A stretch of DNA of 60,585 nt from Chiloscyllium plagiosum (taxonomy: Eukaryota): assembly GCF_004010195.1 (NCBI RefSeq), contig NC_057740.1:10341709-10402293 (forward strand), written 5' to 3'. The translations under genes and the position numbers were made by a program. The first letter of the stretch is position 1. Every line of letters begins with the position of its first letter. Below are positions 4,441-60,545 of this stretch, piece by piece. The notes under the pieces are model-generated. The model was not told the DNA's origin. It was given only the letters and a program-made list of their open reading frames with translations, and did not search any database.

Positions 4441-4529
4441 TATATAATGCAACACCAAACTGTAGCTCCAATACAGAACAACTTAGTTTCCAGTGACTTT
4501 GTTGGTCCTACAACCAATACATTCACAAG
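4441..4529 (+). promoter_or_regulatory. TATA box and probable non-coding exon 1 of cathepsin gene A
   Basis: TATATAA at 4441-4447; strong donor caag|gtgagt after 4529; 22-nt block at 4466-4487 is 19/22 identical to the equivalent region of gene B. Confidence 0.6.
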
Positions 4530-5255
4530 GTGAGTTCAAGTTAGTTTTTGTCATTAAAAAGTAACAAAAGCCCATTGTGTGGACTGATATTTCATATAAA
4601 AGTTATAGGTAGTTATTTATATGTGATATATCTGTGTAAATGCAGAAAAATCCACAGCAAATTTTAGTCCATGAATGGGAATGTTTCCATTAAAATAATG
4701 GGCAAAAGTGACATGAAATGAACTCTGTGTTATTTACCAGATGACCACTTTTGGTGTCTTGTTGTATTTTCCACCTCTACAGTCTATAGTAAGGGGCATA
4801 TTTTGAGGTAGATTTGGCTGCTACCAAATCTCCCTTTGTCTTGGGTATATCTAATGATTAGTGGTTGAGTTAAGTATCCGTAAAAAAAACTTCTGCGGTG
4901 ACAAGTGCATTTATAGCATAATAGTCAAATGCATGACTACGTGTAATCAGGAACAAATATTCACACTTCAGAAAGCTGGTAAAGAGACATTTGACCCTCC
5001 AAAAACTTTGTTTTCTAATAATGGGAACCTTTCAGAGTTAATTCTGCCTTTACATATTCAGAAAAAGCCATCACCAGGTGATCGACAGTTCAGTTCAATA
5101 GAAACTAAGCTCACTTAGAATAGGTAAAACAAGGAATATTGATTCATTAAGAGACGATCTTAATAGTGTGCATAGGAACATGATATTTTGAACTTGAATT
5201 GTTTCCCCACGTTATTCTTATTTTGCTTTCTGTAGCTTTTGTTCGATACGACACC

Positions 5256-5318
5256 ATGGAGCTTTCCAGCTTTTTGATGTTCATTTTGGTTGCTGCCTGC
5301 AGAACTTCAGCTAACCTG
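5256..5318 (+). CDS. Gene A signal-peptide exon (MELSSFLMFILVAACRTSANL)
   Basis: Acceptor tgtag at 5235, Kozak-like accATGg, hydrophobic core, phase-0 donor ctg|gtaaga. Confidence 0.8.
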
Positions 5319-8300
5319 GTAAGACATGAAGTCTCGAAAAGTTGGATGGAGGTTATACGTATTCAGGTTCCAGGTTCATCTTCAAACATAAGATGTGCAC
5401 AAACAAATTCCAGAAAAATCAGCAATTGGGAGATGAGTTTTTGTTTCAATCCTTATAAGCTGGAATGCACTTCCAGAAAAGATGGAAGCAGATTCTTTAG
5501 TGGTTAGTACTGGTGCTGTGAGGCACCTGTGAGGACTCAGGTTCAATTCCAGCCTCAGGTGATTGTGTAGAGTTTGCACTTTCTCTTCGTGTCTGCATGG
5601 GTTTCCTCAGGTGTTCTGGCTTCCTCCCGTAGTCCAAAGATATGTAGGTTTGGTGCATTGGCCATGCTAAATTGCCCATAGCGTCCTGGGATGTGCAGGC
5701 GAGGTGGATTAGACATGGGAAATGCAAGGTTATAGGCAGGGTGGGTAGGTCTGGGTGGGATGTTCTTCAGAGGGTCATTGTGGTCTTCTACCACACTGTA
5801 GGGTATCAATGATTCTAGGCGAAAGTGAGGACTGCACATGCTGGAAATCAGAGTCAAGATTAGAGTGGTGCTGGAAAAGCACAGCAGGCTAGTCAGCAAC
5901 TGAGGAGCAGGAAAATCGACATTTCGGGCAATTGTTTTGCCTAAAACATCGATTTTCCTGCTCCTCGGATGCTGCCTGACCTGCTGTGCTTTTCCAGCAC
6001 CACTCTATCTATGATTCTATGATACTTTTCAAACTGGAATTGGAAATAGGAACAGTTGGAAAGTGATGGGGATTAATTAAATAATCCTTTCAGAGGCTGT
6101 TGAAGGAATAAAAGGGCCTGCATCAAGACTGTCAATTTTTAATGTTCAATAATTAGGGTTTCAACACCATTTCAAAACCATCTTTCCAATTTTAAGGGAA
6201 ATGTGGATCTAAGCCAGTTAACTTTCATCATAGACAGAGTTTATTAATTAATCAAGTCACCCTTTTATGTTCACTCAATCAATTATTTAATCAGTGTTCC
6301 CTAATTACCTGCTTAACTACATGTTTATTGACAAAAAGGTCCAATGATCTTCTTCCCATTGCTGAAAATGAGCAATTTTACTGCAAATTTACACTTTATA
6401 AGCAATCTCTTTTAATAAATGAATGAATAGATGGTAAACAAATTACTGATTACTATCCAACATAAAGCAGGAACGTATACATTTAAACTGGTCTTTGATC
6501 AATCTACACAAGTGGTGAATGAGACAATTGTAAGTGGCTGGTTCTCTGTTTTAATGGAAAGGAATTCTAGATCAGTTGGCCAATCATTCTGTAACAATTG
6601 CAATATTCACAGTCATTAATTTATCAAAGGACATTAATTGTCCGCTCAACTGGTTTAATGTGAGAAAAGGACTTCCATGAGCTTTAGTAGGATTGATTTT
6701 GGTTCTTTGAACAGAATTGTTTCCTGATATTTTGTGGTATTTTCCACCTCTACCAGTCTGAGTAAGGGGTATGTTTTGAGGTAGTTCACTGCTGCTAACT
6801 CTCCTTTGTCTTTGCTTTGTCTGGGACCTATCTAGTGATTAGTGGTTGAATTAAGTATCTACAGAAAAGGAACTGTTCTGAGATAACAAGAAATTACTTT
6901 AATTGTGAATCACTTTTCCCTCAGGTATTCCAGGAAACCAACCAATTAATGAGAGAGAAAGTGGGAGACAAAATGTCAAAACTGGCAGATCTCAGTTTAG
7001 AGGAATTGAGTTCTCTTCCAGAGCAGAAGGATTGGCGTGATGATAATTATGTTACAGCCGTGAAGGACCAGGTACCCATTAATTTTCATCATGTCATTTG
7101 TAACCTCACTATACAAACAACCTGTTCAATGACTTTAAATCCTACTAACTGACATGAAATAAAGCAGAATCAGTCTGTTTCACTGGTGGTACCATCCAGT
7201 TGGATGTGATTTTCATTGCTGAGAAGAAATGCAAATGTTAGCATTTTCTTTCTCTCTCCAGGAAATGCTGCCAGTCTCACAGCAGCCTCCAAAATTTTGT
7301 GTCAGTGAAACAATATGTGAAACCTTATTGTTGCCCTTTCAAATTTATTTCTTTGATGGATGTTAGGGCCAAATTGGGAGTTGGTTTAACTCACTTGGCT
7401 CAACAGTTGGTTTGCAAAGCAGTGTAATAACGACAGTTGTGGGCTCAATTCCCAGCAAAGGCTGAGGTTATCATGAAAGACTCTCCTTCTCAATCATGCC
7501 CCTTGCCTGAGGCATGGTGGCCCTCAGGCTAAATCTCCACCAATCATGTTTCTCTAATGAGAGAGCAGCCCCATTACCGAGTCAGACTATGGCAGCTTGA
7601 GGGTCAAATTTGAACCTATGATTTTCTGAAGTGTGTCCTAACACTGGCCGAGAACCTGACTGATTTTTCTCCCTTCCATTATGTCCTATTAATGTGCTGA
7701 TTAGCTCTGTACAGCCAAATCATACGAGAAGCTCTTAAACTGTATGGTCAAATGTTTTGTGTCAGCAGTGTATTTGCTACTCAGCCATTGAAAGCAGAGT
7801 ATTACATAAACATCACAGGCATGTCTTTTGGTGTCTCGCAATAATTCAGTTGCAGAATGAATTGTCCACACTTTGCAATCTTTGGCAACTTCTCCCTGTT
7901 CCACGACCTCTTTTGCCAACAAGGAAAGTAATTCCCAGTATTACAGGAAATCGACCACATCCCACGATCAATGCCATCCTGACATAATTGCCATTTCTTC
8001 CTCACCAGTGAGTAAAAATTGCAGAATACTCAACATCGCCAGGGCTGCACCATCACTAATATGACACCAACAGGTCAAGTAAATCCACAAAACTTACAGA
8101 GGGAATGAAGGAATGAATTTGTCCTTGATAGCATCATTGTCGTATAATTATGTTAATAGTCATAAAATTATGTGATGGGAGAATTTTTACAGCAAATAAG
8201 TATTACAATGAAAAAAATGTTCATATTACATTTGAGACTTCTAATCAAGATATACAGGCAGAAAGAGTAGCTCTGAAGTAAGCAATTTGAGAAACAGACT

Positions 8301-11300
8301 ATACAGAATTGCTTTTTAACATTCAGATATTTAAATAATGACATCCACAAGTAGATAATCCACATTTCATATTCTCATGCTATTAGTTTTCATTGGAAGT
8401 GATGAATGATCAAGAGAAAGAGTTTTGTTATATTCATATCTGTTTTGTGATCAGGGCCAGTGTGCATCGTGCTGGGCCTTTTCTGCAGCTGCAACGATGG
8501 AAGGACAACTGTCCAATACAACCAACGACCTCCTCTCACTCAGTGAGCAAAACCTTGTGGATTGTGCAAAAAGCTATCAGAATCAAGGATGCAATGCTGG
8601 ATGGGTGCATCGTGCTTTGGAGTACATTCGTGACAATGGAATTGAAACTCGTGGAACATACCCCTACGTAGCAAAGGTACATTTGTTGCTTTACTATTCT
8701 CATTTTCACACAGTGATTCTCTATGTTCAGTTCAGCAACAGTTTGAAGTTTAACTTTCATTTTACACTTACAGGAAGTGACCACATCTTTATGCACAGCA
8801 CATGTTTTACATTCTAACTTGCATCAGTGCAGTGAATTTCCTATTATGCTTCCTCAAAACATCCTATCTTGAGTTAGAACTGTAATCTGTTCTATTAATA
8901 ATTATTGATTGTTGCTAGATCTTTACATTCTTTCCCTTGGAATTTAGTGAAAGGAAGGGTGGGATTGGGTTTGGGGTTGGAATTAAGGGTGAGAATGGAC
9001 TAGGTTTCATCAGTTACAAGAATCCCAATGGACATCAACCCAGAAACACACATTGAAGTTGTCTTGAGTGGAGTCTCTTTCATATATAGGAGAATGCTAC
9101 CACAAAGACAATGGACCAACTGGACAAGTCTCACCGTTCAGCTGGCCTTTCTTCCCAATGCAGAAGCGTTGACCCTGACTCCTATTGTACTCTTTGATAT
9201 TGGACAGCATCAACAATCAAACTTGACACAGTGTATGTCAGAGTGCAGAAGGGACTGCTTCCAAATTGTAGGGAGTCTATGATTCTATGATGATTGTTCC
9301 CCCTGCTTACAGGATGTAGTGAGATCAAGGTGGAGGATGATTGTTGAGACCAATAGTAGTGTTTCCTCAGCTACCCCTACTGAGACCAGCTAATTTCAGA
9401 AACAGTCAGGAACAATACTTGGGCCTTCTTAGGCCACATGCCTCAGCCTCTAACTGAGAATTGGATTGTATTGAATCCTGAATTGGCTGACACAATCAAT
9501 TTTAGATTCTTAGAAGCTTGTAAAGAATTCAGTAACAGAATTCTGGAAATAATGATCTGACTTTTTGATTTGAAAAAATGATATTTTTCTCTTCCAATTT
9601 CAGAAGCAAGCTTGCACATTTGATTCAGCAAATTCTGTTGGAACACTGTCCCGTTACGTTGATATTAAGAATCTGGAAGAGACAGAAATAATGGAGATAG
9701 TGGCAAAACACGGACCAGTGGCTGTACATGTTTACATGAGTGATGCATTCTTGAATTATAAAGATGACAGTAAGCTAATTATCACTCACCCCTTTATTCT
9801 CTCTATTTCACATCCTATCATGCAATTTACTGTACTGTGCATCCATTTAACAAACTCCACTAAAACTACACAAATAATTTCACATAAATTGAGGCAAAAA
9901 GACAACTAAACCTTTTGTACATTACACTAAAACTTGTGAAGACATTGAGAAAATTCCCTCTACACTATCCCTTCTGACATATGCATGTATAATGTTTACC
10001 ACTAAAGGTTAGTTAGACTGAGTCCAGGCCTATTCTCTTCTACTCAGTGTTGTTACAACTCATAGATCACAATGCTCCAACATCACTGATTACTTGTTTC
10101 CCATTGTTATTTACATATACATATGTATCCATCCAGTCAAGTGGTGGCCCAATTATCCCTTAACTAACTTATAACCATCACATGTTACCGATTTCCATTT
10201 GGTCTCAGGCAATTGCCAGATCCTACTAAATGATAGTAAAATGGAAAAAAGATTTTGTTTTGTGGTTTTTAATGTAAAGTTAAATTTTAAAACTACAAGT
10301 AAATTGCTACATGACAACCTTTAAACTAAATGAATATACTATTTGAAAGGACTTCAGTGAAAGTCTACTTTGGTCAACACAATCACCCTTTTATATCTGA
10401 AATTTGACCTTGACATGATGTCTTCATATTGTGCTGTTTTATAGGCATTTTTGATGATACTAACTACAATGGTGAAATACCTAACCATGCTGTGACAATA
10501 GTGGGCTACGTGAATAAGGTTAATGAAAAATATTGGATCATTAAAAACAGGTAAGTGGTATGGATTGTGGAATAGGAGTTGAAATAGGTGGAGAATCCTT
10601 GAGATTTTAAGTGTTGAAGGACACACAAGAATTTGGGTGTCTTTCCTTTTGAAGAAAGCTAACTTGGAATGGTACTTTTACTCGAAGGAACATTCCACAT
10701 GCTTCAAAGGATGGATGATAAGCTGTTAAAATATTAGATAGGCATAGAAAACAATTGAAGAATCTTAGAATCATAAAATTAATGAACCCCCACCTTGCAG
10801 GTAGAGGCTATCCGGCCAATCGAGTCTGCACAGACCCTCCAAAGAGTATCCTGTCCAGCCCCATACCATGGCCTCGTACCAATAATTGCACATTACCCAT
10901 GGTTAATTCACCAAGCCTGCACACCCGTGAACACTGTTAGCACGACCAATCCACCTAACCTGCATATCTTTGGACTGTGGGAGGAAACCGGAGCACCCGG
11001 AGGAAACCCACGCAGACATGTGGAGAATGTGCAAACTCCACACAGACAGTCACCAAAGGTTGGAATCAAACCCAGATCCCTGGCCCTGTGCGGCAGAAAG
11101 AAACAAATGTTCTGACTGAGAAGAGGAAAGTCAAATCACAATGTTAAAGGGGAGATGCTGAAAGTGGGGATCAGAAATTATAGCTGTCATAAATAGAAAG
11201 GAGATACTTAGAAGATACTAATAGACAGACAGTGTGATGAGGGATCCATAGTGGAGAGATGTGTACAGGTAGATCTGAATTTAAATTTGACCAACTTTAG

Positions 11301-11508
11301 AAAGTATAGGCATAAGTGTGATTAAAACAAAACTGTGCAGGAAGTTTTACCTTCTTTGCTTTGGTATGACAAACCTATTTTGCATTTTAACAAAAATTCT
11401 TTCATTATTAGTTTTGGAACCAGCTGGGGTCACAATGGCTACATGAAGATGATTATGTTCAAGAACATGTTAAGAGTAACCGACAGAGTCTTCTATCCAA
11501 TAATCTAA
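5256..11508 (+). CDS. Cathepsin L-like papain-family (C1A) cysteine protease, gene A (spliced)
   Basis: Exons 5256-5318, (6431-6514 tentative), 6925-7071, 8455-8676, 9604-9769, 10445-10550, 11412-11508. All introns are GT-AG and phase-compatible, with no stops. Motifs: LPEQKDWR, QGQCASCWAF (catalytic Cys), SEQNLVDC, NHAV (His), WIIKNS (Asn), FYPII*. 266 aa, or 294 aa with the tentative exon. Confidence 0.92.
5497..5817 (+). mobile_element. HE1-type tRNA-derived SINE
   Basis: tRNA-like head (agtggttagtact..ggttcaattcc), conserved body tccaaagatatgtaggt..ggccatgctaaattg, tail gattcta. Confidence 0.85.
5819..6008. mobile_element. Fold-back Penelope-related short element inserted in the SINE tail
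   Basis: Inverted arms of ~65 bp (tagagtggtgctggaaaagcacagcagg / cctgctgtgcttttccagcaccactcta); same sequence family as the Penelope terminus at 44920-45000. Confidence 0.7.
6431..6514 (+). CDS. Gene A tentative degenerate prodomain exon (MVNKLLITIQHKAGTYTFKLVFDQSTQV)
   Basis: ag|ATG with weak pyrimidine tract, GTG|gtgaat donor, phase 0/0; resembles the NxxxI..H..GxxxFxL..N.F.DL end of the cathepsin L I29 exon. Confidence 0.5.
6925..7071 (+). CDS. Gene A exon: pro-linker and mature N-terminus
   Basis: ttccctcag|GTA..CAG|gtaccc; VFQETNQLMREKVGDKMSKLADLSLEELSSLPEQKDWRDDNYVTAVKDQ. Confidence 0.9.
7380..7598 (+). mobile_element. tRNA-derived SINE, second family
   Basis: tRNA-like head and body ggccctcaggctaaatctccaccaatcatgtttctctaatgagagagcagc; reverse copy at ~26620-26810. 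Confidence 0.6.
8455..8676 (+). CDS. Gene A catalytic Cys exon
   Basis: 222 nt, GQCASCWAFS..SEQNLVDC..GCNAGW..YPYVAK, ag|..|gtacat. Confidence 0.95.
9604..9769 (+). CDS. Gene A exon (KQACTF..GPVAVHVY..NYKDD)
   Basis: ttccaatttcag| acceptor, |gtaagc donor, 166 nt ending in phase 1. Confidence 0.9.
10445..10550 (+). CDS. Gene A catalytic His/Asn exon
   Basis: IFDDTNYNGEIPNHAVTIVGYVNKVNEKYWIIKNS, 106 nt, ttatag|..|gtaagt. Confidence 0.93.
10768..11095 (-). mobile_element. HE1-type SINE
   Basis: Reverse complement of the HE1 body (gcaaactccacacagacagtcacc, ggaggaaaccggagcacccgg). Confidence 0.85.
11412..11508 (+). CDS. Gene A last coding exon
   Basis: (S)FGTSWGHNGYMKMIMFKNMLRVTDRVFYPII*, TAA at 11506-11508; same 97-nt length as the last exon of gene B. 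Confidence 0.9.
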
Positions 11509-11675
11509 CAATATGTGCCTCAAAAAGATACAGTCAACGTGTTGAGGAAGCAGCTTCTGGAAAAACTCTAAGATTTTACTGTTTTGAGGGTAGTGCTTTA
11601 AGGGGTTGTGGAATAAATCTTTTCTGTAGCTAAGTATGATTTCCTGGTGACTCTGTACCATTGAAGTTGAAAAAC

Positions 11676-11686
11676 AATAAAATAAA
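11676..11686 (+). terminator. Polyadenylation signals of gene A (overlapping AATAAA pair)
   Basis: aataaaataaa ~170 nt after the stop, followed by GT-rich ttggtttgtttttgt. Confidence 0.6.
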
Positions 11687-11989
11687 TGAATTAACCTTTA
11701 CAACTTGGTTTGTTTTTGTATACAATTAATCAGACCCTCAAGAGTAGTGTAGGAGGCAGCAGAGGCTGGAGAACCAGGAAGGGGGTGTTTTGGACCTCAT
11801 TTTTTACAGTGGGGGTTTGGTTCTGTATTCTACAAATGATGGCAAATCTCTAACACAATATTGACTCCACAACACAATTGAAAGTTAATTCTGCTTATTC
11901 ACCAAGTGCTTTAGACTAATTTTCTGAAACTGAGTGCACTTGCATGCTGAGTTTGGGATGGGACACATAGATCCCAGATACCTGGCTGC

Positions 11990-12292
11990 TTACATTTTGC
12001 AAAGTTAAGACCAGGCTTTGGTTCTGCTTGTGGAAATCAGCCACACAAAGATTACGGATTGCTTTCACAATATAAAGACCTTCAGTTACATTGGGAAAGT
12101 TGGGAATGTTCTCCTTGGAGAATAGAAGTTGAGAGGCATTCATCATAATGGTGACTGTAAACAGAGTAGATAGCAAGAAACTGTTTTCATCGGTAGAGGA
12201 CTGAGAGCAAGAGAGCACAAATTAAAGGTGATTTACAAAGGAGGTAACAGAAACACGTCGAAAATGAATTTACAAAGTGAGTGATTAGGTTT
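11990..12292 (+). mobile_element. CR1 LINE 3' fragment (old)
   Basis: Degenerate LGMFSLE.RRLRG / TRGH-type RT C-terminal coding remnants. Confidence 0.55.
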
Positions 12293-12493
12293 CTAAATCA
12301 GAACATAGGAATAGCAATGGGATATTCAGCCTATTGAGCCTGCCTCCTTATTCAGTATGATCATGGTTGTTTGAACACCTCAGTGCCTTTACCCATCCAT
12401 CCCCAGGATTCCTGTATGCCATCGGGATTCAGAAATCTATCAATCTGTACCTTAAACATATTCAGAGATGGAGCTTTCACAGTTCACTGTGGA

Positions 12494-12580
12494 ATCAGCT
12501 GATGAAGGAGCAGTGCTCCAAAAGCGAGTGCTTCCAATTCAACCTGTTGGACTATAACCTGGTGTTGTGATTTTTTAACA
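12494..12580 (+). ncRNA. Minimal hammerhead ribozyme-like motif in a short Penelope-type repeat (mutated copy)
   Basis: CTGATGA 12499-12505, stem II GGAGC-agt-GCTCC, aAAA (G>A), then gcga; family copies on - at ~39108-39210 and ~52066-52160. Confidence 0.55.
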
Positions 12581-14249: not shown

Positions 14250-14591
14250 GACTGATATAAGGTTGACAAGTCTGTAATTTCCTGTTTTTCTTCTCACTAC
14301 CTTCTTAAATATTGGAGTGACATTTGCTACCTTGCAATCCATAGGAATCATTCCAGAATCTATAGGATTCTGGTTGATAATCACCAGTGCATTGATTACC
14401 TCTGCAGCTACCTCCTTCAACACTCTTCAATGTAGACCAACAAGTCCTTGTGATTTGTTCACTTACAGCCCCATTAATTTCCCCAGTACAATCTTCTTGT
14501 AATTTCTTTCAACTTTCATTTTATTAGCTTCCTAGATCTAGCAGATTTCTTACACTGCCTGAGAGAACAGTGGAGGAAATTTTGATTATCA

Positions 14592-16643: not shown

Positions 16644-16730
16644 TAATCAACTCCGTGATTCGTTATCAGTGTTGTTTACAGACTTGGATATAGAGAAGAC
16701 AAGCCTGGATGTCTTTAATTATGTTTCCAA

Positions 16731-17060: not shown

Positions 17061-17066
17061 TTTATT
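17061..17066 (-). terminator. Candidate polyadenylation signal of gene B
   Basis: tttatt (AATAAA on -) ~255 nt downstream of the stop. Confidence 0.45.
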
Positions 17067-17320: not shown

Positions 17321-17417
17321 TCAGATTATGGGATAAGAAGCACTATAGTTAATTCTACACATGTTCTTGCCTTTAATCATGCGCATGTATCCTTTCTCAC
17401 CCCAAGATGTTCCCCAG
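17321..17417 (-). CDS. Gene B last coding exon
   Basis: (S)WGTSWGEKGYMRMIKGKNMCRINYSASYPII*, acceptor ttccttttctag. Confidence 0.93.
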
Positions 17418-20400
17418 CTAGAAAAGGAAAAATATTTGTTAATATCCAAAACCCAATCTAATCATATCCAAAATTCAGACAGTGAGGATTTTTGTATGCT
17501 TGGTTCTGTAATATTTTTAATTTCTTCATTCGGATTGAATGCATTTTGGTTTTAATTTTAGTAGTGTTATCAGCAGGACATTAGGTTCATTTTAGAAAGA
17601 ATTTACTTCTGGAGATTTACAATTCCATCGAGACAAATTATTAGAATAATTGCAGCAAATGGGAGAGACAACATATAGAATCATTATGCATGGAAGCAGG
17701 TCATTCAGCCCATTGAGTTCACACTGACCCTCCAAAGAACATCCCACCTAGACCCAACCTTATTTCTATAACCCTGCATAGTCCATGGCCAACATAACTT
17801 GCACATCTTTAGACTGTGGGAGGAAACCAGAGTACCCAAAGGAAACCCACACAAATATAGAGAGAATGTGCTAACTCCACACAGGCCATCACCCAAGGCT
17901 GGAATTGAACCCAGGTCCTTGGTGCTAACCACTGAGCCACCATGCTGCCCCCTGAAAACTCATGAGATGGCCTCCAGTTCCAAGAGTAGCTTCCCTTCCA
18001 GATTGATTATTGAATGAAAAGTCTATCAGCTGCCATAGTGGCATTTGAGACCATTCCCCAAAACCATTAGCCCAGAGGCCTGGGTTATTAGTCTAGAAAG
18101 ATTCCCACTATGCCACCTTGTCCCTTGTATACTCTTACACAAAAGGTTAGTTTTGAGACAATGAGGAGTTATTACGTGCAGTGCATAGCAGTTTGTAACT
18201 ATCATGCAAGGATGAGTTTCAAAGTGTACAGCAGATGATCTGAAAAATAGATTTCTTTATTAATTCATTCACAGGATGTGGGTGTCAGTGACTAGGCCAG
18301 CATTTATTGCTAATTTCCCACTGTGCAGAAGACTGTTGAGAGTCAACCACACTGCTGTTCATCTGGATTCAGATGTAAGTCAATCCAGGCAAGAACTGCA
18401 GTTTCCTTCCTTAACATCAGGGATTACAATGGCATTTTCACCAAGCAATCAGTTTCTTGATCATCATTAGACTTTTAATTCCAGACTTTGTTGAATTCAA
18501 ATCCCAACATCTGCCACGGTGAAATTTAAACCTGGCTTCCTAGAATATTATCTGTGTCTCTGGATTAATAGTCTAGCAGTAACACTACTTGGCCATCATC
18601 TGCCTTTTGGATCCTGTGAAGTGGGATAGTATGTTCAGGCAAGGTGGAAACAATGATTGACAGCTGGGACAGAGCAGTTCTCCATAATCAGTGTAAGGGA
18701 AAGGATCAAAGATCAGCTTTGTCTCTAATCTTTAAATCAACTTAAGGTAGCCAGGGAAACAGAGGTTTCACTTACTACTCGGCAAAAATGAGATAGAGTG
18801 GTTGCAGCTGAAGGAATAAGCTTTTACAATTATTATACTCTCACAAACTATAAGTGCCAGGCAGTTGACTTGACTGCTATATAATCAAAGAGATTTAGCT
18901 ATCCCACATTTATCCATAAGGTGGCGACAGGAAGTAAATGAATCACTTTGAAAGAATTGTGTTGTATTCAATTACATCTTGATATAACGAGCTTCACTTA
19001 CATAATCGTAAATGCTTTAGGAGGTTCTGCTTATGTGTTCGCTTCTTAATGCTTCCTTTTTCCATTTGATAATTAAATAATGTCTGTGCCAGCATCAGTA
19101 TCAATACTTCATAGGGTAACAAAGATTTCCATCCTGCCTGCTTTTCTTAAATTCTTAATTTGTAGATATAGTTACCTGTTTTTAATGATCCAGTAGCTGC
19201 TTGAAGGTGCATCCACATATCCTATCAAGACCACGGCATGATCAACTCTCTTATTATTGCAGTCAGCATCATCAAAGATACCTGTAAAATGGAGGATAGC
19301 TGAAATAAACGCATAGACGCCAGTAATCTGTCACCAAGTCACCCTTTATTTACATGTGCACAGTACACTGGCTATAGCCAGCCAGTTTGGAGTCAGTCTC
19401 TTGAACTAAAGAGATCTGGTTATTTTTTTTTTCTTTTTTCTCCTTATCCCCACACTACCGCCTAACTGCGATAGTGCTTATAGGTTTTCCCAGCATCCAT
19501 GTTGTGTGAGAGTGAAGGTGTGAGACACAGTGAAAGACAACAGGTATACAAATCTTTATTCAATTTCCACTACCAGGAAGAAAGGAAACACCAGGGTGGT
19601 CAGTGACAAGCAGTGCCCTTCTCAGAGGGTATTGCTGCCGAATCAAACAGTGAAGGGGTTAAATCAAAGTAGAGTTGGAGAGGGAAATAAAGCACTCCAC
19701 TCCACTCCCTGCGGTGCTACCTCTCCCTGAGCAGCTCGAGGGTGTTGGTGAACACCGCATGCCCCTTCTCCAGAGACACTCAGGCTCGGACGTAGCCGGG
19801 GAAAAGGGGCAGGCAATCGGCCCTAACGACCCCCTCCACGGCCCGCTGCCTGGACCTATTTATGGCCAGGTTGGCCAGGCTCAGGAGCAGACCCACGAAG
19901 TGATTCCCCTGGTTTTTTGGTCAGCCAGGGCTTTCCTGATTGGAGGAGAAAGTGAGGGCTGCAGATGCTGGAGATCCGAGCTGAAAATGTGTCACTGGAA
20001 AAGCGCAGCAGGCCAGGCAGCATCCAAGGAACAGGAGAATCGACCGTTTCGGGCATTAGCCCTTCCTGAAGAAGGGCTTATGCCCGAAACGTTGATTCTC
20101 CTGTTCCTCTTTCCTGATTGGCCCAGGTTAACAATCCCAATCAATGACTTTTTATAGTCAACCGCCTGGTTCCAATCACTCCAGTAGCATTGTAAATGAA
20201 AACAATTTCGAACTATAGTTCTGCCTTCCTATTCTTGGATAATAACAAGCAAGCAAGGTTTGAAAGGCAGACCTACAAGATTTTGCATTCTCATAGCATC
20301 TTTCACCAAGCAACTTGTCCCAGAACCATTAAACAAAAAGCATTTGCAAAAGGTGACTAGACTGATCAAAAGAGAAAATTTGATTTTAAAAAAATTACTT

Positions 20401-23400
20401 CAAAAGACAGACGTATCAAAGTGAAAATATTCAAGAATTCAATTACAAGGTGTTGTGTCTGCAAATTGTGCATGAAGGTGATGTAATATCCAATTGTTCC
20501 CCATCTTGCACAGTGAGATTGAGAGATTAATTCTGAACCATGGTGAATTTTCTTTAATAAAGCAAACAGAAATTGCTGGAGAAACTCAGCAGGTCTCATA
20601 GCATCTTGGAGAAAGAAACAGAGTTAATGTTTCAGCTCTTCTTCAGATCTGAAGAAAGGTGACTGGGCTCGTAACATTGACTCTGCTTTCTCTCCAAAGA
20701 TGCTGCCAGACCTCCAGTAATTTCTGTTTTTGTTTCAGATTTACAGCATCAACAGTTCTTCATTCCACTTTAGAATTTTCTTTACCTGACTTGTAAAATC
20801 TCCAGGAATTAAGTGACGAATAAACAAGTACAGAAATTGGTCCAACACGTGCCACTAATGCAGCTAATCTTTTCTCATCAATATGCTTATACCTTTGGAA
20901 TCCTTTAATTGTGACGACGCTTTTAGCGCTACTGAAAGAGCACTGATCATTTCGCTGTAATTAAAATGAGAATCTGTTTAGCAACTTGGCAGACAAGAAT
21001 TGTCAATAAATGTCAACATCATATCACATACAAAATCCCACATATCTATGAGCTCCCAGCATCACTGTCCTCCAATACCTCTGAACACGTTCTCCATCAC
21101 TCAGTGCTGGTATGTCCCTGTGCCCTTTTCACCCAGCATGTACTGGCAGACTCATCTGGCCCAACCCCTCTACTTTCGCTTTCTAAATTTCTTTGCTTTG
21201 CTACATTCCTCCAACTTCAGAAACCACATTAAGACCCACCTTTCCATTAGCTCATTACATCCAAAATCACAAATCACATTCCAATTCAGACGTGACTCCA
21301 AACTGCTGAATTGTTTGAAATTTTTATTCATTGAACATCTCTGTGGTGCATGACAGAGAGCCACAGGCTAATCTCTGTTTCTTTATTTCTCTTTTCTCTT
21401 ATCCAGCAGTGGTCTCACAAATAACTGAGCGACTTTCCCACCACCAAAATCATCATGACTTTTATTTTTCACTGACAGGCTAATTTCTACTCTGCATTAA
21501 GTTAATTAGTCTCAGCTAGGATAGTATTTGAAAGTGCTGCAGATGCCCAGTAGAAATTTAGTCAATGCTTCCAACCCTGGTCATTATTGACAATCCCTAC
21601 TAGATGGTTTTCTATTGATATTGAATAAGGGAAGTATCAAGCTCAAATATAACACTGGCATTGAGGTCCCAATTAATTAACACTAAACATGATTGATGGA
21701 TGTCTTCAACGGGTTAGCATTTCCCAGTTGATGATTTACATATATTTGGTGGAAGGATCATTCAAATGTGATATAATTCAAAAATAGGGATAGACCAGCA
21801 GCATGGACAAGGAAAGATTTAGTCCAATGATACACTTGAATGAAGGACATTCTTTCTGCTAATAATCAAAATGACATTTGCTTGGCACTACGCATGAAAA
21901 TACTCAGATTCAGGTGACTTCTGTGTTTGCAAAGGTTCAATGAAATTGTTCCTTAAACCAGAATATCTTTCAGAACTCATAATTGACAGTCAAGTTATAT
22001 TGTATGAAATAGAGAGAATATCAGGCAGAAGATGTACCTTTGCTTGGTAGGGGTACGATTGATCAGATTCAATGCCGTATTTTTTAATGTATTTAAAGGC
22101 ACGATATGGTAAACCTCCATCGCACCCATAATTCTTAAATTCATCGGAACAGTCAATGATGTTTTGCGTGCTCAGATCCACATACTGTTTCTTTTGCTTG
22201 GCCAACTGACCTTCCACAGCTCCAACTGCAGCAAACGCATAACAGGACAAACATGAACCCTGCAGACAGAGCAGATAAATCGCCAAATGTGAAAAACACT
22301 TACAGATGTTTATTCATGATCCTCTTCACTTTGATTGAAAGAGAATCCAAATAGTTAACCAGACCTTTGCCTTGACTGTAATTGCCAACAGATGTGAACA
22401 GGCCTGGAATGTATTCATGCAAAATATTCAGTTCGAGATCAACCACTGCCACAACCTTACCCCTTCCACTTTTGGATGCCTAAATGGCACAGCATCATAT
22501 TTCAGTCCCTCACAATGTCATTTCAAGATGGCAGCATAGCTTAAGAATCAAAAACTTGATGAATTAGAGTATGCAGTGAGAAAGAGGAAGGGGGATAATC
22601 ATGAGCAGCTGGTGAGAATTGGCAGTAAAACATACACAACCTCAGGATTTGTTAATAGTGGAGTAGGGTCTATGAGCAGGCAAGTTTTACTGAACGTGTA
22701 CTGAACATAGACCTCTACTGGAGCACAATTTTGGGCACTACACTTTAGGAAGGGTGACACTGTTGCGTCATAGCACCAAGAACCTAGGCTCGATACCAAT
22801 CCTGGGTGACTGTATGGAGTTTGCTTGTTCTTCCTGTTCTGTGTGGGTTTCCACTGGGTGCTCTGGCTTCTTCCCACAGTCCAAAGATGTGCAAGTTTAT
22901 GTGGATTAGCCATGCTAAATTGGCCATAATGTCTGGGCGTGTGCAAAATAGGTGGATTAGCCATGGTAAGTGTGGGTATAGGGTTGGGGAGGATGTTCTT
23001 CGGCAGGTCAGTGCAGACTCAATGGGCTGAGTGGCCTGTATCTTCACTCAAGGGATTCTATGAATGCAAATATGTTGGAGGAAGTACAGAAGGAGTTTAC
23101 ATGAAATACGCCCACTGCCTTCTCTGCCCCCACTGACCCTCTCCTTGCAACCCAAGCTTCTAGCCCTTCTCCCTTGGTGCCCAGTCATTCCCTACCCAAG
23201 AAACCCTAGACTCAGCTTGTCCAGCAAAAAAATGCTCCTTGGTGGTCCTCCTTCCATTTCCAGCCCTATGCAATCTGATTGGCTGGCAGTTCTCAAGGAC
23301 AGGATTTCCTCTCAGTGGGGGCTGCCTCAATAAGCACATTGGTGCTGCAGGCCAGCATCGGAGTCATGGCATTGTTCCCATTTAGGGCCCTCTTGTAGCA

Positions 23401-26400
23401 CAGTAGTAATGTTCTTATCCTTGGATGTCCAGGTTCAAATCCCACCTGTTCCACAAGTGTGTAAGAGCAATTCTGAACAGATTGATTAGTAAAATTGTTA
23501 AATTTTTTTAAAAAAATTAAAAATAAAAGGATTCTTTCTTCTGATAGGTCCCTTCACCTCACTATAAGAATGTCCATAAAAGAACACCTTATCAATGGTA
23601 TTGAAGCAAGTGACTTCATGACTTTGTAAGCATTAGAAGTCTACTTGTAAGCTGGTTTTGTGCATTTTAATTTCCCCTCCGGACCCTGGGGCATATTTTT
23701 AAGGTGAGAGGAGAAAGATTTGAAAAAGATAGAGGGGCAATTTATTTTTACGCAGAGTGGTTCGTGTGTGTTACAACGTTTAAAAGACATTTAGAGAAGT
23801 ACAAGAATAGGAAATGTTTGGCGGGATATGGGCCAAACATGGGCAAGTGGGACTAGGTTAGTTTGGGATTATGGTCAGCATGGACTGGTTGGACTGAAGG
23901 GTCTTCTTCTGTGCTGTATGACTGTATGACGCTAATCTGCCAGGCACTCAAAGTGTTAGATCAGGACCCTGAATATATATATGTGCTTTTGTTAAAGATG
24001 AAAAATCGAACATGAAAATGAGTTTATCAGAAAGGAAATCTTTTTAAACAACCTGTCTGAACATGATGTGTCACATCTCCAAGACCATCCCTGACTTGAA
24101 TCCAAACCTTTTAGCCCTGAGGTAAGGACCCTGTCACTGCACCAACATGTTTCTGTGCATAACATTATTTTTAATCAACCTGTTCAGATATGTCATGCCA
24201 ATTCTGAAGTAGGTGAGATTTAAATGTGGACCTACTGGCCCTGAGGTGAGGCACTACCAGTGCACCGCAAGACTCTAAAGTTATTTGTAAACTACCTGTT
24301 TGGACATGTTGTAGCACATTTGCACGGCAGGTGAGACTTTAACCTGGACTTTCTAGGCTAGAATTACGGGCACTACCACTTTACTGCAAATCCCCTTTAG
24401 CATTTGTCTGTACGTCCATGTTGTCTGTCTGAATCGGACACATTATCCCCAATTGTTTGCTTCTGTTCTTAGTGCCTCCACCTACTGGCAGTTAAAAAAA
24501 CCACTAACTCTATAAGTTGTTCCTCCTGCTGCCTATTTAATACTGCTCTAACGTTTCTCAAACATAAGGTGGTTGAAAATTGTAAAAAATATTGAAGTAT
24601 GCAATGGTCATTCATGAGCATTCCTTAGAGTTAAAATATTAAAGAAGCATCATTCAACAAAATCAAAATCAAGCAACAACCTTCCTGCACAGAGTGAACA
24701 GACAGCATGAGAAGGTTATAGGTACCTGGTTCTTTACACCTCTAACATAACCCATTTGACGCCAGTCCACTTCTTTGGGCATACGCCTGACTTCCTCCAC
24801 TTCTTCCAGTTCTTCTAGTTCAATATCTGAGAATGCTTCATCTGTGTAATTTGCCATTTCATACATTGTTGCATCAGTATACAACTGTACAAACTCTGCT
24901 GGTGTCTGGAAGATAGAGTTGCATGATACCTCCAATGACACTATATCAGCAAACTATGCAAAGTCAAAATTGATTTGTTCACAAACAATTTCAATTCCAC
25001 GTGTCTCAATTATGTTTGCAATTTGCATCCAAGTTTGGCGATAATAGTGATAGAGCTCTCGAGCTCATCTTGTTACACAAAACGTGGAAGTCTTGGAGAG
25101 GGAGACAAGAGACATGAGCAGAAAGAAGCAAACTCCTGGTGTCTGTTGTAGATCAACAGGTCAGAGCAGGAGATTAAATCAAGAAACTTGAAGTCAAAGA
25201 AGCATATAGAGAAATGGGGATAATTGTCATGGATAATTTACTTCAATTTCTAGGAATAGATCAAGAATCTTTGCAAGTGCTTTCAGAATGAAACCATGTT
25301 TTGAGTAAACTGGAGAGGGTTCAGAAGAGACTTACCAGGCTGTTGCTGGGTATAGAAGGTTTGAATTATAAAAAAGGCTGGATAGGCTGGGACACTTTCA
25401 CTGGAGTACAGGAGGTTGAGAGGCGACCTTGTAGAAGTTCACAAAATAATGAGAGATATAGATAGAGTTAATGGCAGCAGTCTTTCCCCTAGAATGGGGC
25501 ATTTCAAGACTGAGGGCACATTTTTAAGTTGAGTGGAAAGAGATTTAATTGATATGAGAAGTAAATATGTTACACAGAGGGTGGTTTACATGTGGAATGA
25601 GCTTCCTGAGGAAGTGATGGATGTGGGTACAATTGCAACATTTAAAAGACATTTGGATGGATACATGAATAGGAAAGGTTTGGAGGGATATGAGCCAGGA
25701 GCAGGCGAGTGGAACTAGTTTAGTTTTGGGTTGTGTTCAGCATGGACTGGTTGGACCGAAGGGTCTGTTTCTGTGCTGTATGACTCTCTGACTCATTGAC
25801 AGTTAACTAACAAATTCCTATAATCAGAGGCACTGTTGTATTGGATCTTCAAACATAATGGAGGTCACAGTATAGGCAATCCTTCATTATGAAAGCATTT
25901 ATCTGAAAATGCACCAATACTAAAGAGACAAGTAATTGGGCTGTGAACAAAGTTTGTAACTTGACCATATTAAATGTAGCCAAATGTTATTTTTCTGGAA
26001 TTAGTGGGATTTTTTTAAACTCGAAAATAAACCAGTTGCTAGCTGAAACAAACTTAATACAACGCAGACACAATGGATGGATGTCACAAACATGTTAACC
26101 AAGAAACAGTTGGTGCAATTAGTCTACACAATGGTACTTGTTTGTCCAGGTTTAAATGACACTCTTTGCTATTGACCCAAGTTAACAGCACTTAAAAATA
26201 ACAACTGCTGTTCCATTGCATTATCGCACACACCCCATGAAAATGTTAACACCAATATAGTTACAACAAGTAAAACACATTTGCTGACCTAACAATGAAG
26301 GCAAGCCCAGAACTTTACATGTGAAATTGCCTTTGTAAGTCATGAACACAGGATGTGTGCTTGACACAATATTAAGATGTTGCAGTCTCAAGTGTCATTG

Positions 26401-32400: not shown

Positions 32401-34542
32401 TACAACATTGAAATGACATTTGGATAAGTACAGAATAGGAAAGACTTGGAGGGATATGAGCCAGGAGCAAACAGGTGGGACTAGTTTAGTTTGGGATGAT
32501 GTTTGGCATGGACTGGTTAATCTAAATGGTCCGTTTCCATGTTATATGACTCTATGACTTTATTTTCAGAACATGAACATTGCTGACGAGACCATATTAA
32601 TTACCTAGTCTTTGTTATTCTGATGGGCTTTCTTACTGAACCTGTATGTAGTGATACTGGAATCATGGCAATGTTTTGCTCAAAATAAGTTAGAGTTGAA
32701 GACAACAGCTGGCCCAATGGAGATAGCAACATTTCCAGCTGATATATTTTTGTCCCAGGAAAATAGGTTCACTTAATTGGGCTCAAGTGATTCTCCATCA
32801 CTCACAGTGCCAAAGAAGCAAGTATGGCACTCTATCATTGCTATCACTCACCAAGTCTCCAAATTCATTCATGGCCATTTCATACATGGAATTTCCTTGA
32901 TGATATCGAGCATTGTGAGCTGCGATCTTCTCCAAGTTTTCCAGCCAAATTTCTCTCCTGACTAGATCTTCCTCCTACAAAAATATTGAGTTACTGCAAT
33001 ATAATGGTCATAGCATCAATTGCCCAATGAAATTAGTGAAGTTACAAATGGAGTGTTTCTTCAAATGAGTGAAGGCAGTTGAATGTTCGAGTAGGAGATG
33101 ACAGTATTTACTGTCAGCTACAGTAGAAAAAACTGGCATCAAAACTATCAGGTACAAAGAAGGGGAAACCAAATAAGTTTTAGGCCATGATTTTGGAAAA
33201 AGATTACATACAGCACACAGGGCAGCAAGACAACGGGCCTGGCTCATTTCAATCTGAGATTTACATTATGAGCAAAGAAGTCAAAAAAGTTAGGGTGGCA
33301 TGGTGGCTAGTACTGCTGCTTCTCAGCACCAGAAATCTGGGTTTGATTCTAGTCTCAGGCAACTGTCTATGGGGAGTTTGTACATTCTTCCTGTGTTTGC
33401 ATGAGTTTCCTCCAGATGCTTTGTTTTTTTTCCCACAGTCCAAAAGAAGGCAGATGAGTTGGCATGGCCATGCTAAATGCAGGGGTCATAGGGTGGGGGT
33501 GAGATGCTCTTCAGAGGGTCAGTTTGGGCTTGATGGGCCAAATGGTCTGTTTCCACACTGTAGGGGTTCTATGAGTTGGATAATAGGCACCATGAATGCA
33601 CTCTAGCGGAGTGAGAGCTTACCACGCACCCAACTGAGTTCTGTTTATCTTTAAGCTACAGACATAAAACAAAGGTGTTTCCAAAATCCCCATTCCTGCC
33701 ACTCTGCTGTAGATTACACTTCCATTTTCCTCAACCTACTTGGTAAAGTCCAAATATAGGTTTTTTAAAAAGTGGAAAGGCAGCCTAATTTGTTATATCA
33801 TAATTACTGCTTCTCACCAATACAACAAGCAATGACTTGTGTTCATATGGTCAGTTTAACAATATATATTATCACAAGGTGAAACACAGGAGTGTTGTAA
33901 ATAATCTTTGACAGTGAGAAACATTCAATGATATTGGGACACAAGTCAGGTGAAAGGGGTATAGAAGGTAGCATTTTTCTGACTGAAATCATGATGAGAT
34001 ATATGATCAGAAGCTGATCCAGCGGGTAAATATTTCTCCACAGGTACAAGCACTCCAGTTCAGCCTCACACAGTTCGGAAGGTGATGCTGTTGGTAACTA
34101 GAGAACAGGCTTTTCAATATGGAACTAAAGCTAACTGGTTTGACCGTCCCAATATTTCCTTGGAGGAAATTAGAGAAACATGTCATTATTCGCGTTTTAC
34201 AAATTTGGAAGAAATGTCCAATAGTTGCCAAGTTATTGGCTGGTATTAAGTATCTGAATCGCCACAGAAGGACATTTTGTGGAAACTTTGCTTTTTGGTT
34301 CTGACTAATCAGCATTAACAAACAGGTGGGGATTAGAGTTCAAGCTGACTTCTTCAAAACAATGTCATGGTCTCACAATCCTCTGCTCAGCCCAGATTTC
34401 TTACCACACTAAGGTAGCTTTTTCCATATGCCTGCTTCCAAGTTTCCCATTGCTCATCCACGATTGGGTTTGACAAGGCCATGGGTATAACAGTCAGGGT
34501 CCACACCATAAAGAGGGAAAATATCATGACGAAGTATTGCAT
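17321..34542 (-). CDS. Cathepsin L-like papain-family (C1A) cysteine protease, gene B (spliced, 344 aa)
   Basis: Exons 34542-34405, 32974-32852, 24905-24726, 22259-22038, 20954-20786, 19281-19176, 17417-17321 total 1035 nt in an open frame, all GT-AG. Signal peptide, I29 prodomain (WETWK, ERFNIN-like EDLVRREIWLENLEKIAAHN, MNEFGDL), MPKEVDWR, QGSCLSCYAF, DHAV, WIIKNSWG. Confidence 0.95.
17675..17950 (-). mobile_element. HE1-type SINE
   Basis: Reverse HE1 head ctaaccactgagccaccatgctgccc and body. Confidence 0.85.
18255..18605 (-). mobile_element. tRNA-derived SINE, third family
   Basis: Reverse complement of the family at 45027-45340; other copies at ~39440-39700 and ~56030-56770. Confidence 0.6.
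19176..19281 (-). CDS. Gene B catalytic His/Asn exon
   Basis: GIFDDADCNNKRVDHAVVLIGYVDAPSSSYWIIKNS, 106 nt, ttacag|..|gtaact. Confidence 0.93.
19422..19908 (-). mobile_element. Tx1/L1-clade non-LTR retrotransposon 3' end
   Basis: Minus-strand translation (with frameshift and stops) GLLLSLANLAINRSRQRAVEG..DCLPLFPGYVRA.VSLEK.HAV resembles Tx1-type ORF2 C-termini; AATAAA and A-rich tail; flanked by ctggtt duplicates. Confidence 0.7.
19944..20108. mobile_element. Fold-back Penelope-related short element with 13-bp TSD and hammerhead core
   Basis: TSD ctttcctgattgg (19931-19943 / 20109-20121); CTGAAGA-a-GGGC-ttat-GCCC-GAAAC at 20066-20090. Confidence 0.75.
20560..20760. mobile_element. Palindromic short element (inverted Penelope-type termini)
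   Basis: Centre tcttcagatctgaaga; arms cagaaattgctgga / tccagtaatttctg; degenerate hammerhead core at 20649-20680. Confidence 0.6.
20786..20954 (-). CDS. Gene B exon (RNDQCSF..GPISVLVY..FYKSG)
   Basis: 169 nt, aattacag|..G|gtaaag. Confidence 0.92.
22038..22259 (-). CDS. Gene B catalytic Cys exon
   Basis: 222 nt, GSCLSCYAFAAVGAVEGQ..STQNIIDC..GCDGG..YPYQAK. Confidence 0.95.
22755..23063 (+). mobile_element. HE1-type SINE
   Basis: HE1 body and tail gggattctatga. Confidence 0.8.
23685..23930 (+). mobile_element. HER1/CR1 LINE 3' end
   Basis: ggtgagaggagaaagattt..gggatatgggcc..ctgtatgactgtatgac tail. Confidence 0.75.
24045..24400 (-). repeat. Three degenerate tandem ~120-bp tRNA-head SINE-like units
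   Basis: acctgt(c/t)..ga(c/t)atg ... cac(c/t)..cactgcacc recurs at ~24050, ~24178 and ~24294; an opposite-strand copy lies at ~23388-23490. Confidence 0.55.
24726..24905 (-). CDS. Gene B exon: acidic pro-linker and mature N-terminus
   Basis: 180 nt, TPAEF..DIELEELEEVEEVRRMPKEVDWRQMGYVRGVKNQ, ttccag|..|gtacct. Confidence 0.93.
25308..25795 (+). mobile_element. HER1/CR1 LINE 3' end
   Basis: LERVQKR..TQRVVYMWNELPEEV..FKRHLD; tail ctgtatgactctctgactc. Confidence 0.85.
26620..26810 (-). mobile_element. tRNA-derived SINE, second family
   Basis: Reverse complement of the 7380-7598 family. Confidence 0.6.
26915..26955 (-). ncRNA. Minimal hammerhead-like motif at the end of a Penelope-type short element (26821-26955)
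   Basis: Minus strand: aagct-CaGATGA-a-GAGTC-atcta-GACTT-GAAA-catt-agctt; 5-bp stem I and stem II both pair. Confidence 0.55.
26969..26986. repeat. (GT)9 microsatellite
   Basis: Direct reading. Confidence 0.9.
28590..29660 (-). mobile_element. CR1 LINE RT fragment with 3' tail
   Basis: ORFs LFVIYVNDL..SKFSEDTKIGG, LYNTLVRPHLEYCIQF; tail ttctttgttct. Confidence 0.9.
30241..31815 (-). mobile_element. HER1/CR1 LINE RT fragment with internal 170-bp tandem duplication
   Basis: QHGF..SCLTNLLEFF, YMDFSKAFDKVPH, SGVPQGSVL, FADDT, RGHQFK; 31081-31250 is repeated at 31251-31420. Confidence 0.92.
31995..32560 (+). mobile_element. HER1/CR1 LINE 3' end
   Basis: Closely similar to 25308-25795; tail atgactctatgact. 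Confidence 0.85.
32852..32974 (-). CDS. Gene B I29 prodomain exon
   Basis: EEDLVRREIWLENLEKIAAHNARYHQGNSMYEMAMNEFGDL, 123 nt, ttgtag|..|gtgagt; not present in the ORF track. Confidence 0.93.
33292..33573 (+). mobile_element. HE1-type SINE
   Basis: HE1 head, body and tail. Confidence 0.8.
34405..34542 (-). CDS. Gene B signal-peptide exon
   Basis: MQYFVMIFSLFMVWTLTVIPMALSNPIVDEQWETWKQAYGKSYLSV|gtaaga; acceptor cccacag| with exon start at 34573. Confidence 0.92.
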
Positions 34543-35355
34543 ACGTCACTGGGCTAGTGTCTTCAGTGAAAAGCTGTGGGCAATACAATGAGAAAGACAT
34601 GGAGACATAATGCAAGTCCACAATCCCACAGTCCTACCCTAATTATTAAGATGATCGGCACAAGTACAGGTTGAATGGATACCTCATCGTGTACATTTTC
34701 TAAAGTTAGAAGAGCTGAGAGCAGACTAACTACTGCATGCCTACAAAATAAAAATAACAGAGCAGAAGAAAGGTGTTTGATTTAGCTTTAAATAATTTCA
34801 ATTATAATCGTTAAAAGAAAATTTGCCAACTAGTCTTCATTCAGACGTAGAGGGGGGTTGGGGGGGCATTCCTGATAGTGTTCAATTCCTGCATTCCCAA
34901 CAATTTTAATTACCCTGGAAACACAGTTGGCAGACATTGTAAAGTTTCCTGGCTGGTGTGGAATCTGAAGGTAGACATGGGTGACACAGCCAGATTTGGC
35001 TTCTGCTTTGCCTCATTAATACACGTAATATACTGATCACAGGAATCTCTGATTCTCACTGAATGTATCCTGATAAGACACTCATTTTAAAAAATACTGT
35101 GACTTTCCTCTGTCTGCTCGGCATCTAGAAGTGTTAACCCATCTGAATTACATTAAGTTCCAATGTTTCAGAGTTTTCAATCTAATTTCTTTCCCTACGT
35201 GGAATGTAATTACAATAATGTTGTTCTGCCAAGACATTCTGCTGAACTCTCTTTGAAATGCTACACTATTAAATTACACAATAGTTGATTCAATTTATTA
35301 ATTACACATTAGCATCAGGCCATTTATTATACTAGAAGAAATATATTTTACCCAC

Positions 35356-35441
35356 CTCACAAGGTCACCTCCGTTGCTTAACAATATGAACTACTTGGGA
35401 CCAAGTTGTACTGTACTGGAGTTTGAACTGGGGTTTATATA
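35356..35441 (-). promoter_or_regulatory. TATA box and probable non-coding exon 1 of gene B
   Basis: TATATAAA on - at 35441-35434; donor gag|gtgggt after 35356; shares a motif with the gene A promoter. Confidence 0.6.
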
Positions 35442-60445: not shown

Positions 60446-60545
60446 GTGAGTGAGAGGGGGTTAGCCAATGGGAGCGGGAAAGGGCCGTAACGTGAACCAA
60501 TAGGGGCGGAGGAAGGACGGGGCTTAGTTCAACAGCTTCTGAAAG

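Follow-up and report, generated by a model that had tools for sequence, protein, structure and literature searches.

In cathepsin L-type enzymes, the propeptide acts both as a folding catalyst and as an inhibitor, according to the accessible parts of PMC4924875 and PMC9712828. Cathepsin X/Z, a vertebrate C1A protease of another subfamily, has a very short proregion that is devoid of the ERFNIN and GNFD motifs (excerpts of PMC9712828) and is joined by a disulfide to the catalytic Cys. As for the cathepsin L clades themselves, the available portion of PMC13095802 (Nayak et al. 2026) distinguishes three, ctsl.1, cts12 and ctsla, aligns them with 1R/2R and describes an expansion of cts12 in chondrichthyans. 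In chicken, the gene LOC420160, termed a CTSL paralogue in the relevant section of PMC8469556, lies beside MYDGF on GGA28, together with PLIN3, DPP9, FEM1A, TICAM1, UHRF1, KDM4B and PTPRS.

Here, we describe a pair of C1A genes from the shark Chiloscyllium plagiosum (GCF_004010195.1, NC_057740.1, 10,341,709-10,402,293, forward strand). The pair probably belongs, as judged from the trees below, to the old and already published cts12 lineage. What is new is that one of the two, gene A, appears to have lost its I29 inhibitor prodomain while its catalytic domain is conserved, which an earlier note on this DNA had missed; no description of such a prodomain-less gene was found in the open-licence literature.

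Gene models were built from six-frame motif scans and splice-site reading of the window, that is, the whole analysed stretch of 60,585 nt. Gene A lies on the forward strand and codes from 5256 to 11508 for 266 residues (coding exons 5256-5318, 6925-7071, 8455-8676, 9604-9769, 10445-10550 and 11412-11508). Gene B lies on the reverse strand and codes from 34527 to 17321 for 339 residues (34527-34405, 32974-32852, 24905-24726, 22259-22038, 20954-20786, 19281-19176 and 17417-17321). All introns are of the GT-AG type, and the Peptidase_C1 domain (PF00112) is found with E=6e-66 in A and 1e-72 in B. The earlier note spoke of two intact, tail-to-tail C1A genes with identical exon sizes in the mature region. 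The gene models bear out the orientation (the stops are 5812 nt, or ~5.8 kb, apart), the open frames and the shared exons of 222, 106 and 97 nt, but gene A is without a working I29 exon; the other exons after I29 differ in size (147 vs 180 and 166 vs 169 nt). No third cathepsin copy was found in the 60,585-nt window. The features are as follows:

4441..4529, forward: TATA-like box and putative non-coding exon 1 of gene A, start site unmapped; aligns with the gene B promoter and exon 1
5236..5318, forward: gene A exon 2, with a short 5' UTR, 21 signal-peptide codons (ATG at 5256) and an in-exon GTAAGA donor
5319..5378, forward: putative remnant of ancestral exon 2, 3' half (I29 start), intronic or at most partly used; from alignment to gene B exon 2
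6392..6514, forward: putative relic of ancestral exon 3 (the ERFNIN/GNFD exon), with three in-frame stops; from its match to gene B exon 3
6925..7071, forward: gene A exon 4 (147 nt), with a residual pro-segment of ~30 residues, the mature start and Gln19
8455..8676, forward: gene A exon 5 (222 nt), with Cys25, G23A, G65A and Trp67
9604..9769, forward: gene A exon 6 (166 nt), with His133 and an altered propeptide-binding-loop motif
10445..10550, forward: gene A exon 7 (106 nt), with His159 and Asn175; Cys153 lost
11412..11508, forward: gene A exon 8 (97 nt to the stop), with W177F and Arg205; Cys200 lost; 31/32 residues identical to zebra shark
11612 and 11676, forward: AATAAA signals of gene A
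17321..17417, reverse: gene B exon 8 (97 nt to the stop); AATAAA near 17066
19176..19281, reverse: gene B exon 7 (106 nt), with His159 and Asn175
20786..20954, reverse: gene B exon 6 (169 nt), with Leu133; propeptide-binding-loop motif kept
22038..22259, reverse: gene B exon 5 (222 nt), with Cys25, G23L, W26Y and Leu67-Pro68
24726..24905, reverse: gene B exon 4 (180 nt), with a longer acidic pro-linker, the mature start and Gln19
32852..32974, reverse: gene B exon 3 (123 nt), carrying the ERFNIN and NxFxD motifs of I29 (PF08246, E=1.2e-11)
34405..34573, reverse: gene B exon 2, with 5' UTR, signal peptide (ATG at 34527) and I29 start
35356..35441, reverse: TATA-like box and putative non-coding exon 1 of gene B, donor uncertain
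60422..60569, forward: YJU2-like gene, named from its N-terminal motif; first coding exon, with 8 codons and a GT donor

Both genes share the fold, the catalytic residues and the eight-exon plan with cathepsins L/V, K and S, and gene B also has their ERFNIN and GNFD-type motifs; mature-domain identity to the sampled CTSL and CTSK is 39-43%. Compared with these enzymes, A is without I29, Gly23, Gly65, Trp177 and one disulfide, whereas B carries Leu23 and Tyr26. Mature-domain identity to cts12 is just 41-44%, and ray-finned cts12 retains the full I29. The 'cathepsin L1-like' proteins of sarcopterygians, at 37-44% identity, likewise have a full prodomain and mostly the canonical GYG.

The absence of the prodomain from gene A is apparent in several ways. 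The Pfam I29 domain was found in 0/3 A proteins, as opposed to 5/5 comparators. A prodomain HMM of 18 proteins matched only exons 2 and 3 of gene B among 3180 six-frame segments, and it recognized every one of 116 new proteins from a search with a gecko query. In the definition of the cathepsin L-like subfamily given in the accessible part of PMC9712828, gene B has the propeptide that marks the subfamily and gene A does not; gene A descends from this subfamily but is without its defining propeptide. In the ESM Atlas, only generic C1A clusters were found, most of them without I29. The loss extends to the mature domain: an aromatic motif, at what we take to be the position of the propeptide-binding loop, is missing from all three A rows and present in 49 of the 51 others. 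The role of this loop is treated in the available section of PMC4924875.

As to how the remaining exons are joined, the zebra-shark RefSeq model of A connects the signal exon directly to exon 4, exactly as in our model, and 18 of the 21 residues of the signal exon are identical to that protein (P0005), with a hydrophobic core of 3.0 on the Kyte-Doolittle scale. The C. plagiosum RefSeq model (P0002, XP_043577533) has no signal exon and starts within the exon-3 relic; it is likely mis-annotated at its 5' end. The horn-shark model, which is without I29 too, has a different, non-hydrophobic N-terminus that looks mis-modelled. Since these two models differ, the junction of exons 2 and 4 is drawn from one annotation and from the splice signals; we consider it quite probable that the RNA of gene A skips the prodomain exon.

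The introns of gene A seem to retain traces of what was lost. The 60 bases following the donor at 5318 match the 3' half of gene B exon 2 at 24 positions in the register set by the signal peptide (p=0.018), with 18/30 in nt 7-36 (p=5e-5, for a window picked after seeing the alignment), as compared to 21/60 for the gene B intron (p=0.11). This better match to exon than to intron suggests that the donor is new. The alternative, in which exon 2 lost 60 nt internally and its original donor stayed in use, was also considered and is less supported (9/30, p=0.43, vs 18/30 for a new donor). Further downstream, the 3'-terminal 60 nt of gene B exon 3 match best at 6455 among 31,940 offsets, within the expected gene A intron; the full 123-nt exon also matches best within this intron, but this match is equalled or beaten at 37 of 31,877 offsets. 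Both relics lie in the expected place and order, and the loss of I29 may be recorded step by step in the introns of gene A. Although cathepsin X/Z resembles A in its short proregion, that of A would thus be secondary, and its residual pro-segment contains no cysteine with which to form the disulfide link seen in X/Z.

A segment of ~160 nt occurs twice in gene A, at 4759-4905 in intron 1 and at 6732-6890 in the intron before exon 4 (75% identity). It is absent elsewhere in the window and possibly arose by local duplication during the decay of the prodomain.

One could also read the relics as being in use, either by splicing in the piece 6431-6529 or by extending exon 2, so that a degenerate pro-region of ~60-80 residues would inhibit or chaperone the enzyme in a new way. 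The 99-nt piece keeps the reading frame, has no stop and lies between an AG and a strong GTAAGT donor, which the C. plagiosum RefSeq model in fact uses, and the exon-2 relic is open as well, with 60% identity to B over 30 nt. However, the zebra-shark model skips the piece, the pyrimidine tract at its acceptor is weak, and the encoded segment has neither the ERFNIN nor the GNFD motif, no Pfam match and a score of 0.8 bits on the prodomain HMM. We regard a functional remnant of this kind as unlikely.

Database matches show that both genes are conserved. Exon 5 of gene A is 100% identical to C. plagiosum XP_043577533, and among its 98 protein matches there are clear orthologues in zebra shark (XP_048415976, 73%) and horn shark (XP_067872005, 69%), bringing the total to three species; in this search, none was found in C. 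punctatum, whale shark or rays. Exon 5 of gene B is 100% identical to XP_043577534, and 9/9 of its matches come from sharks or skates. Its orthologues occur in horn shark, white shark, basking shark and skates, to which cluster look-ups add whale shark, two skates and devil ray; some of the models bear the name 'testin-2-like'. In each of three species, A and B appear to be located on one contig. In the mature domain, A shares 172 of 215 residues with its zebra-shark counterpart (80%) and B shares 178 of 215, whereas A and B share 95 of 215 with each other. This level of conservation, which is similar for both genes and reaches 31/32 residues in the last exon of A, together with the open frame and the presence of promoter and poly(A) signals, makes it very improbable that A is a decaying pseudogene, even though it has lost its prodomain and a disulfide and the exon 5 search gave no copy from C. 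punctatum, whale shark or rays. The prodomain-less form has possibly been conserved since the split from horn shark.

Among gene B orthologues, the models of white and basking shark (P0104-P0106, P0110, P0288) comprise several copies that end early or are without the last exon, reflecting either duplication with decay or annotation errors. Two further divergent cathepsins with very acidic pro-linkers are found in zebra shark (P0154) and catshark (P0157), the former grouping next to A and B. The apparent location of A, B and P0154 on one zebra-shark contig suggests a larger cluster.

On the level of the active site (papain numbering is used throughout), both genes retain Cys25, His159, Asn175 and the oxyanion residue Gln19. 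This holds across A proteins, with the first three present in 3/3 and Gln19 in the 2/2 that have a sound exon 4. The surroundings have changed. Gene A has Ala23, Ala65, Trp67, His133, Pro157, Phe177 and Arg205, with substitutions at Gly23, Gly65 and Trp177, in the S2 pocket and in the propeptide-binding-loop motif; Cys153 and Cys200 are gone from both carpet-shark proteins, while the horn-shark protein keeps them. Gene B has Leu23, Tyr26, Leu67-Pro68 and Leu133. The mature domains also differ in charge, with a pI of 5.4 for A and 9.3 for B. The predicted model of zebra-shark A nevertheless shows a papain fold (pLDDT 88.9, with a low-confidence pro-segment) that superimposes on cathepsin S with an rmsd of 1.3 A and a TM score of 0.94.

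In the accessible parts of PMC9712828, Gly65 is conserved across the human cathepsins and Gly23 in all but cathepsin W, the S2 pocket is built from positions 67, 68, 86, 133, 157, 160 and 205, and Trp177 forms the floor of S1'; an excerpt of PMC12442452 ties Trp177 to the formation of the Cys/His ion pair. The main rival to our interpretation, which we deem rather unlikely on balance, builds on these constraints: gene A could encode a conserved papain-fold protein with weak or no catalytic activity, serving in binding, as a structural element or as a decoy, and a protein that no longer cuts could lose its inhibitor. The changes at Gly23, Gly65 and Trp177 fit this view, as do an S2 pocket that is bulky and charged and, in the two carpet sharks, the missing Cys153-Cys200 pair. 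The conservation of the catalytic residues in all A proteins argues against it. Inactive testins have replaced their catalytic cysteine, whereas Cys25 is present in all A and B rows. As the propeptide normally catalyses folding, activity of A is not assured, yet we consider retained activity slightly more likely than not.

With regard to specificity, Trp67 at the S2/S3 border is shared with Fasciola hepatica cathepsin L3. For the fluke enzyme, the relevant sections of PMC3708847 report that this residue favours Pro at P2 and Gly at P3 and is needed for collagen digestion, and that in a reverse mutant Trp67 alone conferred only slight acceptance of Pro. The fluke protease belongs to an unrelated lineage with a full prodomain. 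As the comparison of its S2 pocket with that of A covers Trp67, collagenolysis is no more than a lead, and Gly/Pro-rich matrix as the type of substrate for A is doubtful.

To place the two genes, we used maximum-likelihood trees of the mature domain (42 rows: out of 54 domain rows, 18 that were incomplete, almost redundant or wrongly modelled were removed, and six invertebrates were added) and of the pro-plus-mature, or full-length, sequence (31 rows). Both contain one cathepsin K and one S and are without ctsl.1, CTSH, chimaera sequences and shark CTSL/K/S. The earlier note had proposed that A and B are sister duplicates, and this is well founded: they group with supports of 99/95 (mature) and 96/89 (full-length), and their TATA/exon-1 regions align better than all of 2000 shuffles. 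The duplication covered the whole gene. The further arguments made for it hold in part. Similar donor-side intron starts beat shuffles in two of five introns (p=0.003 and 0.005), are borderline in one (p=0.056) and absent in two. The proposed derived features GYV, IFDD, M.MI..KNM and YPII do occur in both genes, but neither YPII nor GYV is confined to them. A teleost cathepsin L (P0018) has YPII at its end as well, and the B proteins of zebra shark and skate do not have it. GYV recurs in 3 of the 116 new proteins from the gecko search and in the query itself (P0156), showing that it can arise convergently. With GYG in 77/116, and the gecko with GYV nested inside squamate duplicates, we ruled out that GYV connects sauropsids to the shark pair. 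As A falls outside all shark and skate B sequences, the A/B split would predate the divergence of sharks and rays.

Squamates have several cathepsin L1-like duplicates of their own, including a fast-evolving set with GYV or GYI and, in the gecko, a lost Cys153, in parallel to the shark genes.

Beyond the pair, the placement receives moderate support in both trees, in which A and B join the two acidic-propeptide shark cathepsins (92/77 mature, 86/70 full-length) and then ray-finned cts12 with bichir and gar genes (86/63 and 88/84); support is weak for the deep branches, and those leading to A and B are long. The earlier note's idea of a separate cathepsin lineage stands as far as CTSL is concerned in the full-length data, where a 99/97 branch sets CTSL apart and the AU test rejects a grouping with it (p=0.031); in the mature domain this grouping is not rejected (p=0.069), and neither is one with K/S. 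The gecko protein, which came from a representative search, falls into a clade (100/99) of 'cathepsin L1-like' proteins from coelacanth, caecilians, reptiles and birds that includes chicken NP_001268417, by its name inferred to be LOC420160; among the best 120 of 5914 matches to this query, there were two mammal rows, both named cathepsin L. The free trees leave cts12 and this chicken-type clade unjoined. A clade of A/B, acidic shark cathepsins, cts12 and the sarcopterygian genes is nevertheless 1.96 lnL above the free search in the full-length data (p=0.60; A and B with sarcopterygians alone, p=0.27), and 4.2 lnL below it in the mature domain, where the AU test rejects nothing (combined clade p=0.143, or 0.14 after rounding; cts12 only 0.322; sarcopterygian only 0.203).

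It has also to be considered whether the pair is of cathepsin K/S or ctsl.1 descent and reached its place beside YJU2 by relocation, its closeness to cts12 being due to long-branch attraction. A K/S grouping is not rejected (p=0.198 mature, 0.086 full-length), and the trees are without ctsl.1. Among PDB sequences, A comes closest to cathepsin S and B to procathepsin K, in both cases narrowly, and exon 7 has 106 nt, a size that we take to be CTSK-like. Against this, neither free tree contains such a grouping, both placing A and B next to cts12 and additional paralogues from sharks; one more paralogue apparently lies on the same zebra-shark contig; and the matching chicken block holds a cathepsin L-like gene (excerpt of PMC8469556). 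An origin from K/S or ctsl.1 thus seems improbable, and orthology of A and B to cts12 and the 19p13.3 block reasonably likely. Trp67 is common to A and cts12 proper. Residues are shared on the other side, too: alligator gar P0178/P0420 and Aldrovandia P0240 form a divergent sister group of cts12, and gar P0178 has Tyr26 and Leu67-Pro68 as in gene B, which may reflect either an old tandem pair or parallel change.

The link to 19p13.3 depends on the neighbourhood. The earlier note placed the cathepsin pair next to YJU2, and a YJU2-like exon is indeed found at the end of the window, head to head with gene B; it comprises only eight codons, lies ~25 kb from the gene B TATA box and presumably represents YJU2, judging by what we take to be its N-terminus. 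We further assume that the genes of the chicken MYDGF block and YJU2 are together on human 19p13.3. With a chicken cathepsin beside MYDGF and this human gene order, it probably does not hold that no other gnathostome has a cathepsin near YJU2. We found no report of cathepsin-YJU2 synteny in the open-licence literature, and the available excerpts of PMC9409823 and PMC8015242 contain no cts12 or YJU2 synteny. What has to be given up is retention in sharks specifically, since the relatives of the pair are ray-finned cts12 and probably the sarcopterygian L1-like genes, and the lineage has apparently been published as cts12. The ohnolog idea is therefore plausible and likely right in outline, but, with the cts12 clade and the chicken GGA28 gene in print, it is largely known.

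Taken together, we propose the following course of events, to which we assign a probability of roughly 0.6 as a whole. The ancestor would have been a cathepsin L-type gene of cts12 descent, residing in a block that matches human 19p13.3 and chicken chromosome 28, and would have been duplicated whole and inverted in early elasmobranchs. Gene B would have remained a conventional zymogen with a signal peptide, an ERFNIN/GNFD prodomain, a long acidic linker, a basic mature enzyme and an altered S1/S2 cleft; its acidic linker may pair with the basic enzyme. In gene A, a new in-frame donor would have arisen just after the signal peptide and exon 3 would have decayed, so that the signal peptide came to be followed by a pro-segment of only ~30 residues and then by the acidic mature domain, while the loop for prodomain binding drifted as well. 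The protein would then enter the secretory path and most likely be secreted without the usual latency, with tissue-restricted expression from its TATA promoter limiting the damage. Its cleft, shaped by G23A, G65A, Trp67, His133, Arg205 and W177F, would be narrow and of low turnover, which would add to this protection, and the enzyme would act on a specific extracellular substrate, possibly Gly/Pro-rich matrix.

A more far-reaching version is tentative: that A is an active, secreted protease that folds without I29, is controlled in a new way (be it by narrow specificity, by the 30 residues that remain of the pro-segment or by a partner, for instance the acidic propeptide of B) and has been conserved since at least the carpet-shark radiation, within a mammal-lost ohnolog lineage of the 19p13.3 block that most jawed vertebrates kept. 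If true, a conserved prodomain-less vertebrate gene would provide a natural test of whether the chaperone is dispensable and of what replaces latency. The locus would also link shark, ray-finned (cts12) and bird (GGA28) genes in one ohnolog hypothesis, for a clade that is already in print.

The window holds some further features outside the coding exons of the pair. Intron 3 of gene B is filled by LINE-like fragments with a weak reverse-transcriptase match (28700-32560) and contains a near-perfect tandem duplication of 171 bp at 31081-31421. An open frame at 44101-44718 with a weak GIY-YIG match (E=0.002, below the cut-off) is probably a fragment of a Penelope-like retroelement. Between gene B and YJU2, there is an assembly gap at 53952-54844 (893 N), which could hide sequence. 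Finally, 60330-60585 contains two tandem copies of the YJU2-like promoter and first exon, with a period of 124 bp and 127/131 matching positions; this represents a recent duplication or an assembly artefact, and short GC-rich repeats are located just upstream, at 60160-60310.
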